DNA from: a virus
Length of the DNA stretch: 27,295 nt
Virus genome (UHGV): UHGV-0068847
Strand: one strand, 5' to 3'
The position numbers are program-made. This document shows positions 9,001 to 12,000 of this stretch, piece after piece. The stretch's first letter is position 1; every line of letters begins with the position of its first letter.

Positions 9001-12000
9001 TATCTCCGTCCGGCAACTCTGTTTATTCCAAAAAACTTCCCTGGTTACCTGCAAAGCGCGACCAAATGGTCTGCCGCTGGGCGACCTGAGCGCGTTAACG
9101 GTAAATGGACGGCTAACTCAGCCAGCCGCGCAAGCTTCCAAAATGTTGACTACTCACTTCCAGAACATTCGGGGTTCCGCTCATGATGCCAAATAAATAT
9201 TGCCAGTCGCTGGCAGAACTGCGCAGTAAACCAGCTCACGAATTGAAAGAAGTTGGCGATCAGTGGCGAACACCGGATCTGCTGTTTTGGGGGATCAACG
9301 CGCTATTTGGTCCATTAGTTCTGGATTTGTTTGCTGACGACGACAACGCGAAATGCCCGGCATGGTACACCGCCGAAGATAACGCGCTGACCCAGGACTG
9401 GTCTGAACGTCTGGCAGAACTGGGTGGCGCAGGTTATGGCAACCCACCGTATAGCCGTTCGCAGTACCACGAGAAACAGGCGATCACTGGTATGACGCAC
9501 ATCATGAAGTACGCAGCAGCCCAGTGCGAGAAGGGCGGTCGCTATGTATTCCTGATAAAAGCCGCGCCAAGTGAAACGTGGTGGCCGGAAGATGCCGATC
9601 ACATTGTATTCATTCGCGGGCGCATTGGGTTCGATCTGCCAGTGTGGTTTGTACCTGCTGACGAAAAACAGAAGCCCACCAGCGCGTTTTTTGCCGGTGC
9701 CATAGCTGTATTCGATAAGTCATGGCGTGGTGAGCGGTTCAGCTATATCAACCGCACAGAACTGGAGGCAAAAGGTCGGGCATTTATGGCGCTGGCTCAA
9801 TTCGCTGTTGGCAAAGAGCCGACAATTGCAATGCGAGCACCCCAGGAGCCAGTCATACCATCGGAAACTGAGTCACGTATCTGGCCTCTCGAGGTTGGTC
9901 TGGTGTTTAACCAGGTGGAAGGCGTTGACGTATTGAGTGAGGCTCAGCAGAACAAGCTGAAAGCCAACATCAATCAACTCTGGCTGGAACGAACGGCCAC
10001 CAGCGAAATTATCACAATTGCGCGTGGTCTTGTCGGCAGCATGCAGGGGGTAACCCATGCGTGAGATTATCGTTGATAACTTTGCTGGTGGCGGTGGCGC
10101 ATCAACGGGTATTGAACTGGCGATCGGACGCAGCGTGGATATTGCGATCAACCACGACGAAAACGCCATTGCGATGCACAAGACGAATCACCCGGAAACA
10201 CTGCATTACTGCGAATCCGTATTTGACGTGGATCCGGTAGCCGCCACCGGAGGTAATCCTGTCGGCCTGGCATGGTTTAGCCCGGACTGCCGACACTTCT
10301 CGAAGGCAAAAGGCGCCAAGCCTGTGAAAAAAGAGATACGCGGTCTGGCCTGGATTGTTCTGCGTTGGGCACTGGCAAAGCGACCGCGCGTGATGATGCT
10401 GGAGAACGTGGAAGAGTTCAAAACGTGGGGACCGCTATTACCAGCTGAGCCACAAAATCCCAATCTGGTGGGGGATGATTTGGCTGCATTTGTTGGCCCA
10501 GTTATACCGCCTTATGATGCGCAGCGTCCGGATCCGGCACGAGCTGGTGAAACATTTGAGGCATTTGTCGGCATGCTATCCACTGGTATTCCTGCTGATC
10601 ACCCGGCACTGGCTGAGGTTTGTGAGTTTCTGTCTATCGAAAGAGGTAGCGAGCAGGCGCAAAAGCTGGTGGATGGGCTTGGATATGATGTTGATTATCG
10701 CGAACTACGCGCGTGTGATTACGGCGCGCCGACGATCCGCAAACGCTTCTTCATGGTTATGCGCTGCGATGGCTGCCCAATCCAGTGGCCTGCAGTTACC
10801 CATGGGGATCCTAAGTCTCTGGAGGTGCAGAGCGGCAGGCTGATGCCATGGCGTACCGCTGCGGAATGTATCGACTGGAATGTTCCGGCCCTGTCCATCT
10901 TCGACCGCAAAAAAACGCTGGCGGAGAACACGCTGAAGCGGATCGCGCGCGGCATACAGCGCTTTGTTATCGAAAGTGCGTCGCCGTTTATCGTGAAGTG
11001 CAATCACACCAGCACCAAAACGAGTTACGACTGTTTCCGTGGTCAGAAGCTGGACGAGCCTTTGCAAACTATTACTAAAACCCACGGTTACGCGTTAGCT
11101 GTTCCACACCTGACAAAATTCCGCACTGGGGCAACCGGGCAGCCCGTTACCGAACCTGTCCCGACGGTAACCGCTGGCACGTCAAAACGCCCGGGTGGGA
11201 ATGGGCATGCACTCGGGATTGTTGAGGCTGCACTGACGCCATTCCTGGCGGGTAATGGTGGTAGTGAATACCAGGCTAAACCGCGCCCGCTGGATAAACC
11301 TGCTCATACCATTATGAAGCAATCCCGCGCCTGTCTTGTTGCGCCAGTGATAGCCCGCCAGTTTGGGGCCAGCGTCGGCCACCGGGCAGACGAACCGAGC
11401 GCCACAATTACAGCTGGTGGTGGAGGTAAATCACAATTGGTGGGCGCGTTTCTGGCTAAACACTACGGCGGTAACTATACGGGACCGGGTGTCAGTATGG
11501 ATGAACCCGCACACTCAGTGACCACTGTCGATCATCATGCGGTTGTTGCCTCTCATTTGGTGAAACTGCGTGGAACATGCCGCGACGGGCAACGTCTTGA
11601 TGTGCCCATGCCAACAATCACCTCTGGTGGCCAACACGTGGGTGAGGTACGCACATTTCTCGAGACGTATTGCGGGGAAAGTGACGATGAATGGCTGGTA
11701 ACGATCGATGGGGTTAAATACCAGATCGTTGATATCGGAATGCGCATGTTGCAGCCGCATGAACTCTACAAAGCGCAGGGCTTCCCGGATGGATACGTTA
11801 TTGATCAGGACTACCGTGGAAATCGCTATGCAAAAGATAAGCAGGTAGCCCGCTGTGGTAATGCGGTACCACCACCATTCGCCAGGGCGCTGGTGGAGGC
11901 AAATCTTCCGGAACTGTGTGCAGTGCAACATCAGGAGGTGGCATGAAACTTGTGCTCCCGTTCCCTCCGAGCGTGAACACCTACTGGCGCGCCCCTAACA

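Follow-up and report, generated by a model that had tools for sequence, protein, structure and literature searches.

The methyltransferase gene and its catalytic core

The UHGV virus genome UHGV-0068847 was analysed as one stretch of 27,295 nucleotides, referred to below as the window. It carries a gene for an orphan C5-cytosine DNA methyltransferase (C5-MTase) of 629 amino acids, in which six short, non-identical modules follow one another between the conserved motifs VIII and IX, in the variable region that houses the target-recognition domain (TRD) of such enzymes. The gene had been singled out in an initial annotation made from the sequence alone, and its assignment to the C5-MTases holds: Pfam PF00145 is matched with 73.2 bits (curated cutoff 22, E = 3.4e-20), in three separate stretches because the variable region is so long; phrog_116 and phrog_23072, both described as 'DNA methyltransferase', are matched as well; and motifs I, IV, VI, VIII, IX and X can all be read in canonical order. 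The score against the NCBIfam model TIGR00675 ('dcm'), 53.8 bits, lies under the curated cutoff of 100.65, and the protein, judged by these profiles, is therefore a C5-MTase that should not be labelled a Dcm orthologue. The gene and the features of its core are as follows, in window coordinates.

10057..11946, plus strand: orphan C5-cytosine DNA methyltransferase gene, assigned from PF00145, the two PHROG matches and the AlphaFold2 (AF2) model of the core
10081..10104, plus strand: motif I, FAGGGGAS, amino acids 9-16, S-adenosylmethionine binding, invariant in 71 relatives
10279..10302, plus strand: motif IV, SPDCRHFS, amino acids 75-82, a form of the canonical PCQxFS specific to this family, with the catalytic Cys78
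10402..10410, plus strand: motif VI, ENV, amino acids 116-118, from the sequence and the alignment of 71 relatives
10432..10671, plus strand: insertion of ~55-80 amino acids (amino acids ~126-205) in the interval between motifs VI and VIII, from comparison with the relatives L001 and L004 and from its rate of amino acid change
10699..10752, plus strand: motif VIII, RELRACDYGAPTIRKRFF, amino acids 215-232, aligned to the prophage methyltransferase 3g7u
11695..11787, plus strand: remnant of a terminal module B, LVTIDGVKYQIVDIG, then motif IX, RMLQPHELYKAQGFP (amino acids 563-577), from comparison with the relatives L001-L004, the module architectures and an alignment of the junction
11857..11877, plus strand: motif X, GNAVPPP, amino acids 601-607, from the sequence, the alignment of 71 relatives and the alignment to 3g7u

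The catalytic motif positions are invariant across the 71 relatives, including S75, P76, D77, C78, H80, F81 and S82 of motif IV. Motif VIII, with its core APTIRKRFF at amino acids 224-232, and motif IX, QGFPDGYVI at amino acids 574-582, lie where the initial annotation had placed them. In an AF2 model of the 629-residue protein, built on a 71-row alignment, the predicted local distance difference test (pLDDT) is mostly 75-98 outside amino acids 280-560, with short dips at amino acids ~80-90 and ~131-160. The confident part finds 3g7u (prophage CP-933R) as its top Foldseek match, followed by DNMT1/MET1, HaeIII and HhaI, all at a probability of 1.00; core fold and motif order are those of M.HaeIII, M.HhaI and 3g7u.

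The extra length of the protein, which had been put down to the repeats, comes from them only in part, ~55-80 amino acids stemming from the separate insertion at amino acids ~126-205. This insertion is the fastest-evolving part of the protein, with a proportion of nonsynonymous differences (pN) of 0.12-0.13 against 0.02-0.06 in the N-terminal core. It is missing from relatives of 450 amino acids and present in some others, for example that of Vibrio phage K404, and AF2 renders most of it as confident helices and is less sure of its N-terminal end (amino acids ~131-160).

Six non-identical modules in the variable region

All six repeat peptides quoted in the initial annotation are present, starting at amino acids 333, 365, 413, 445, 482 and 515 (nucleotides 11053, 11149, 11293, 11389, 11500 and 11599) and thus spaced by 32, 48, 32, 37 and 33 amino acids; the range then given, 11047-11692, corresponds to amino acids 331-546. 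Their description needs some correction. The proposed core, [DE]-x-P-x-x-T-[IV]-[TM], fits four of the six, since repeat 2 begins with T and repeat 5 has S for T, and the Gly-rich segment said to follow it is found in repeats 2, 4 and 6 only. Widened to [DET]-x-P-x-x-[TS]-[IV]-[TM], the pattern has exactly six matches in the 629-residue protein; among 20,000 shuffles of that protein, 19,831 had none and 169 had one, so that ~0.01 would be expected by chance. The six modules, ~32-48 amino acids in size, lie contiguously within amino acids 328-534, and the earlier placement of the repeats exactly in the variable (TRD) region is correct: each bears an E-P-x-x-T-[VIL] element of the kind found in HaeIII and HhaI. 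With types defined by clustering at 50% identity, the enzyme reads D-F-H-C-E-A.

11038..11112, plus strand: module 1, type D, amino acids 328-352, core DEPLQTITKTHGYALAV, from a repeat hidden Markov model (HMM) envelope and typing; 63% identical to its Firmicutes copy
11134..11208, plus strand: module 2, type F, amino acids 360-384 (loop to ~390), core TEPVPTVTAGTSKRPGGNGHALGI, from the repeat HMM and typing
11281..11352, plus strand: module 3, type H, amino acids 409-432, core DKPAHTIMKQSRACLVA, from the repeat HMM and typing
11374..11445, plus strand: module 4, type C, amino acids 440-463, core DEPSATITAGGGGKSQLVGA, from the repeat HMM and typing
11485..11559, plus strand: module 5, type E, amino acids 477-501, core DEPAHSVTTVDHHAVVA, from Smith-Waterman alignment and BLASTP against M.SPRI
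11584..11658, plus strand: module 6, type A, amino acids 510-534, core DVPMPTITSGGQHVGEV, from the repeat HMM and typing

Over about 1,900 modules from 390 relatives, the consensus is x-G-Q-x-[LV]-D-E-P-L-x-T-[VI]-T-[AT], followed by a variable loop of 3-12 residues, a regular hydrophobic strand (L-V-x-x-h-L) that every unit contains, and a short linker with a final G. The individual modules differ in their history. Module 3 is cleanly missing from relatives of 594 and 570 amino acids; the loop of module 4, TAGGGGKSQLV, is nearly invariant, the module being 68% identical to its Firmicutes copies; and module 6 is the constant module, present almost throughout the subfamily, with ~20 near-invariant positions within amino acids 499-540 among the 71 relatives. 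Pairwise identity among the six modules averages 20% over 35 amino acids (maximum 29%), and no repeat similarity was found among the six units at the DNA level. By sequence, they are ancient paralogues of six distinct types. A recent tandem duplication was considered and rejected, the units being dissimilar in DNA and the types older than the spread between Proteobacteria and Firmicutes.

Likeness to known target-recognition domains

The E-P-x-x-T-[VIL] element is a conserved piece of the TRD of ordinary C5-MTases, and in solved complexes its T-[VIL] loop abuts the DNA beside the flipped cytosine. In the Protein Data Bank (PDB) sequences it is represented by NEPAFT237V238QASG in HaeIII and IT250L251SAYGGG in HhaI, and the modules of the window enzyme repeat either the E-P-x-x-T-V-x-A-x-G element of the former or the T-L-S-A-Y-G-G-G loop of the latter. 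Whereas the variable region of the monospecific M.HaeIII and M.HhaI, ~80-100 amino acids long, holds a single such element, that of the window enzyme holds six in ~260.

Multispecific C5-MTases are documented from the Bacillus phages SPR, phi3T, rho11s and H2, as well as in M.phiBssHII and M.BceSV. Module 5 aligns with DEPAFTVNTIDRHGVA(I/V), the last TRD of the four phage enzymes and the sole TRD-like segment common to them (Smith-Waterman z 6.5-8.5; none of 400 shuffles was as good), and the same pairing is the top BLASTP segment between the window enzyme and M.SPRI (best E = 0.009). Alignment of the repeats to the TRDs of SPR and phi3T, which the initial annotation had put forward as a check, hence succeeds for module 5; the other five modules resemble these TRDs at the motif level only. 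Local alignment to the HaeIII TRD gave weaker values for modules 3 and 4 (z 4.2-4.9, with 4.9 for module 3), and in pairwise alignments the shuffle test was passed by module 5 and, more weakly, by modules 3, 4 and B. A crude HMM made from the six repeats landed on the TRD cores of the Bacillus phage enzymes with insignificant scores, and when modules A and B together with motifs IX-X were searched against the PDB, the only matches, to DNMT1/MET1, were confined to motifs IX and X. The SPR, phi3T, rho11s and H2 enzymes all share GGCC specificity; because of this, and because their common segment resembles the HaeIII TRD, that segment is most likely their GGCC domain. By analogy, module 5 may read GGCC.

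The likeness to M.SPRI, M.phi3TI, M.rho11sI and M.H2I goes beyond this one segment. They, too, are phage-borne orphan C5-MTases with tandem units of ~35-50 amino acids between motifs VIII and IX, each unit with [SE]-P-x-x-T-[ILV], and in both groups relatives vary by whole units in colinear order. Escape from several restriction systems, a role reviewed for the Bacillus phage enzymes (PMC12707154), would be a further shared trait. However, the cores of the two groups are barely alignable, BLASTP returning short motif-level segments that do not amount to relatedness of the cores. Motif IV reads S-P-D-C-x-H-F-S-K-A-K-G in the window enzyme and G-S-P-C-Q-S-F-S in the Bacillus phage enzymes, and motif VIII T-I-R-K-R as opposed to Q-N-R-E-R. 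The window enzyme has six modules and its family 2-9, in contrast to ~2-4 in the Bacillus phage enzymes of 439-503 amino acids; its family occurs in Proteobacteria and Firmicutes, the SPR group in Bacillus only; and multispecificity is proven in the latter but proposed for the window enzyme. Going by these sequence comparisons, it represents a lineage separate from the SPR group.

A large family with a variable number of modules

Close relatives of the enzyme (75-99% identity, 570-695 amino acids) occur in Citrobacter, Salmonella, Kluyvera, Enterobacter, Klebsiella and E. coli; as the best protein matches belong to the Citrobacter freundii complex, the window probably derives from Citrobacter. 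Distant relatives are found in phages of Aeromonas, Vibrio, Pseudomonas, Burkholderia, Ralstonia, Pectobacterium, Gordonia, Mycobacterium and Bacillus, and further ones, of 417-684 amino acids, in prophages of Bacillus and Paenibacillus. Searched exhaustively, 1.84 billion representative proteins yielded 2433 clusters (50% identity) at E <= 1e-30; species-representative genomes contain at least 552 confirmed stretches with relatives. We found no prior description of this large family in the literature. Nor did a literature search, which included enterobacterial and other Gram-negative phages, yield multi-TRD C5-MTases described outside Bacillus/Geobacillus; a 2025 review of restriction-modification mentions multispecific C5-MTases as a strategy of Bacillus phages only (PMC12707154).

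Relatives have between two and nine modules, and their length follows from this number (n): 378 + 41n amino acids in Enterobacteria (r = 0.83), 363 + 35n in Firmicutes (r = 0.92) and 399 + 31n in 80 species-representative genomes (r = 0.86). The enterobacterial architectures are DFHCEA (42 proteins), DFCEA (22), DFHCEO (20), DFHCGEA (15) and others; in Firmicutes we found AB (10), GAB (19), KIMGJAB (9), KIMGNJAB, KIMGLNJAB and others. They form strictly colinear series of presence and absence, and they differ by clean, in-register indels of 35-39 amino acids whose break points fall within the conserved hydrophobic frame, such deletions and insertions leaving the open reading frames (ORFs) of the natural relatives intact. 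At the DNA level the gene is a mosaic, separate segments of which match different E. coli prophage genes, and the sample comprises ~160-300 module sequence types, depending on the clustering threshold.

The position of module B, just before motif IX, is that of the single TRD motif in ordinary enzymes. The P-x-x-T-V-T half of this terminal module (11695..11740) is missing from every enterobacterial relative examined, where only the strand LVTIDGVKYQIVDIG is left; that half is kept in nearly all Firmicutes relatives examined and in the phage relatives L001-L004. This is a lineage-specific loss of an apparently ancestral TRD position. One of these phage relatives, L001 (KY197768.1, 1465..2850), is an unannotated family member of 450 amino acids with three modules (GAB), 50% identical to the window enzyme; the record is labelled Bacillus phage phi105, is titled as a CwlH amidase gene and has one annotated feature.

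Among the multispecific enzymes with a prophage origin, M.BceSV (BCE_0393, from a prophage of B. cereus ATCC 10987) methylates seven target motifs and confers protection from at least 12 restriction enzymes (PMC3459991); in its native host it stays silent (PMC3526280). M.BceSV and M.phiBssHII, compared by description only, are prophage-encoded C5-MTases like the window enzyme, and the seven motifs of M.BceSV are comparable in number to the six modules of the window enzyme. The B. cereus member of the present family (P0198) differs in its neighbourhood from the ParB-methyltransferase/terminase context of BCE_0393 (PMC3592412). No annotated methyltransferase was present in the 50 kb examined of prophage phBC6A51 (ATCC 14579), and the best 80 of the at least 552 species-representative stretches included none from the B. 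cereus group.

Constraint on the module region

Module types A, C, D and E are found in both Enterobacteria and Firmicutes, with identities of 57-68%; in the same protein pairs, the catalytic core is 67-76% identical. Relative to the gene of phage Flotzy, the module region has a pN of 0.05 and a proportion of synonymous differences (pS) of 0.70, a ratio of ~0.03 that makes it as constrained as the core; relative to phiNP, the values are 0.18 and 0.71, again on a par with the core. All six modules are under strong purifying selection (pN/pS ~0.03-0.09), these ratios being approximate owing to saturation of synonymous sites. Since pN is far below pS and the modules are conserved across phyla, the region is functional and under constraint, neither neutral nor a disordered linker.

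A flexible linker, disordered for the most part, poor in information and with no part in recognition, is nonetheless what structure prediction, taken at face value, would suggest. AF2 assigns pLDDT values below 50 and no secondary structure to amino acids 299-560, and values below 50 also to the whole variable region of a three-module relative of 458 amino acids (P0121, 72 rows); several of the loops are, moreover, Gly-rich. The alignments behind these models comprise only 71-72 rows and are put out of register by the variable number of modules, which is enough to explain the low confidence and is its probable cause, so that the models are best taken as silent on the variable region. Low pN, near-invariant positions across relatives, module types shared between phyla and a regular hydrophobic strand in each unit are hard to reconcile with disorder, and a C5-MTase requires a folded TRD at exactly this position. 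The initial annotation had named prediction as a disordered linker as an outcome that would speak against its proposal. The AF2 models leave that outcome standing; conservation and the ratio of nonsynonymous to synonymous change (dN/dS) rule it out, and we regard a linker as very improbable.

The same data bear on a second explanation, in which the array is mostly fossil: one or two active TRDs, for example types A and E, would make the enzyme mono- or bispecific, and the remaining modules would be pseudo-domains retained as spacers or as raw material for recombination. Work in the Trautner laboratory reportedly revealed inactive pseudo-domains in the Bacillus phage enzymes, and the loss of the TVT half of module B in Enterobacteria demonstrates that modules can decay. 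Decayed modules should, however, drift or vanish, all the more as loss of a whole module is easy, whereas the six modules are all under purifying selection and their loops are conserved between Enterobacteria and Firmicutes. We consider a mostly fossil array unlikely, though far less so than a linker.

A candidate multispecific recognition array

We favour the interpretation, to which we would assign a probability of roughly 0.55, that the window enzyme is a multi-TRD, multispecific anti-restriction C5-MTase of a lambdoid, Citrobacter-type prophage. Its mode of action appears to be that of the SPR lineage, within a separate and much larger family with a cassette organisation. The variable region would be an array of six non-identical target-recognizing modules, each consisting of a common frame (hydrophobic strand, G-Q linker and E-P-x-x-T-[IV]-T) and a type-specific loop. 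If the Bacillus phage enzymes are a guide, the single catalytic domain would pair with one module at a time, and each module would steer methylation to a short target of its own, although some may be silent pseudo-domains. Expressed during lytic growth with the delayed-early genes of the nin region (replication, Dam, C5-MTase, RusA, Ant, DUF968 and Q), the orphan enzyme would shield the DNA of the progeny phage from several type II restriction systems at once. New combinations would arise as recombination in the conserved frame adds or removes whole modules in register. Independent action of the TRDs, the presence of several methylated targets, the anti-restriction role and the timing of expression are what we infer from the comparisons above.

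Several observations favour independent recognition modules. Only one T-[VIL] loop fits beside the flipped base, which argues for alternative and not simultaneous use of the modules. Enterobacteria having lost the TVT half of module B, other modules must be able to supply recognition there. The range of two to nine modules and the conservation of type-specific loops across phyla point in the same direction.

Other observations weigh against this interpretation. For five of the six modules, the likeness to known TRDs is confined to a motif of 6-8 residues. The family-trained module HMM had no meaningful match to the SPR, phi3T, rho11s, H2, HaeIII or HhaI enzymes, and a profile of 50 diverse modules searched against all PDB sequences gave only a chance match, to a calcium-channel subunit. 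Independent TRD folds lack structural support, given the low AF2 confidence for both the window enzyme and its three-module relative. Literature and sequence searches identified no experimentally characterised member of the family. Colinear, position-specific repeats with internal indels are also typical of solenoid proteins, such as those with leucine-rich or ankyrin repeats, and the known pseudo-domains of Bacillus enzymes imply that the number of modules may overstate the number of specificities.

Some of these points would be accommodated if the modules were structural repeats, for example an array of beta-hairpins, of one enlarged DNA-binding domain with a single or relaxed specificity, their number tuning affinity, processivity or site length and not the count of targets. 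Such a design would agree with the solenoid-like colinearity, with the absence of significant similarity to characterised TRDs in five of the six modules, and with the near-invariance of module A in the subfamily, as would befit a structural keystone; promiscuous prophage methyltransferases are, besides, known, for example M.EcoGII (PMC5778455). It is less easily squared with the fact that each module bears a motif that fills one unique site by the flipped base in solved complexes. An apparent tolerance of two to nine modules, together with loss of the terminal one, ill fits one cooperative fold, type-specific loops are as conserved across phyla as the catalytic core, and module 5 matches a proven independent TRD. 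Structural repeats thus seem an unlikely explanation as well, if a little less so than a fossil array.

Extending the multispecific interpretation to the family as a whole is a more tentative step. It may be that the relatives constitute a cross-phylum family of phage methyltransferases in which a recombining array of two to nine interchangeable mini-TRDs of ~35 amino acids, each with its own motif, serves one catalytic core; we hold this to be somewhat less probable than multispecificity of the window enzyme itself.

Prophage setting

The window is a lambdoid prophage, with integrase, a DndB-like gene, a CI-type repressor, CII, a replication protein, a Dam-type methyltransferase and the C5-MTase, followed on the 3' side by RusA, Ant, DUF968/HNH, Q, lysis genes, the Nu1/gpA terminase and the portal. 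The C5-MTase gene sits in the nin region, and its immediate neighbours are those described in the initial annotation, in an enterobacterial prophage as stated there.

9183..10064, plus strand: phage Dam-type N6-adenine methyltransferase (PF05869, 1.2e-43; TIGR01712, 206 bits against a cutoff of 97)
11943..12329, plus strand: RusA resolvase (PF05866)

The stop codon of Dam and the start of the C5-MTase overlap (ATGCGTGA), and the likely ATG of RusA at 11943, with AGGAGG upstream, overlaps the C5-MTase stop (ATGA). Consensus scans of the plus strand from the replication genes to Q gave no strong promoter or terminator, counts being no higher than in shuffled sequence. On this gene order, delayed-early expression in lytic growth is what we would infer. 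No restriction gene lies adjacent to the C5-MTase and no nuclease partner was found, the gene being that of a temperate phage which carries no cognate restriction enzyme. Membership in a restriction-modification pair or a known defence system was likewise considered and rejected, PADLOC returning generic methyltransferase models only, with no nuclease partner.

Other genes of the prophage deserve brief mention. The Dam-type methyltransferase has 293 amino acids, of which only 19-199 form the Dam domain; a C-terminal extension of ~90 amino acids matches phrog_16025, and the upstream partner is therefore itself modular. Its equivalent in phage Flotzy is annotated as a phosphoadenosine phosphosulphate (PAPS)-reductase fusion. 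A DUF968 protein (13026..14021, plus strand; 3.5e-78) with a weak HNH-nuclease match is encoded between Ant and Q, co-oriented with the methyltransferases. In the early-left region, 2657..3733 on the minus strand encodes a DndB-like protein (PF14072, 4.7e-47; PADLOC DndB, 2.4e-39); no dndACDE genes accompany this solitary homologue in the window, and it could be a regulator or an anti-defence factor against phosphorothioate systems. By the integrase, a small ORF (1717..2238, minus strand) has weak matches to Methyltransf_11 and Methyltransf_25, both below cutoff, and could be a third methyltransferase-like gene of the prophage. Finally, the stretch 17000..20000, between the lysis genes and Nu1, has a GC content of 0.40-0.45 as compared with 0.53-0.59 in its flanks. 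Within it lie 17802..18227, an ORF on the minus strand that weakly matches GIY-YIG (E 0.002, under the cutoff), and the unassigned ORF 18648..19151; the stretch is probably a moron or a homing-endonuclease-like insertion.

Implications

Multispecific cytosine methyltransferases have so far been treated as an oddity of a few Bacillus phages. If the modules described here act as independent TRDs, they would provide a natural, extensible 'plug-in' mode of DNA recognition that is wider and more modular than the Bacillus phage cases. The family would then offer many natural pairs of a ~35-amino-acid module and a DNA motif, with variants differing by one module as ready-made controls; the reading of DNA by short TRDs would become directly testable, and a toolkit for engineered writers of 5-methylcytosine would be at hand. 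Sequencing by the single-molecule real-time (SMRT) method detects 5-methylcytosine poorly, and because of this, together with silence in lysogens, most methylome surveys would miss such activity. Citrobacter is a classic source of type II systems sensitive to cytosine methylation (the Cfr enzymes). Were the TRDs indeed independent, multispecific methylation would be a common strategy in prophages of Enterobacteria, Vibrio, Aeromonas, Pseudomonas, Burkholderia, Paenibacillus and others, and would help to explain how temperate phages pass across restriction barriers.

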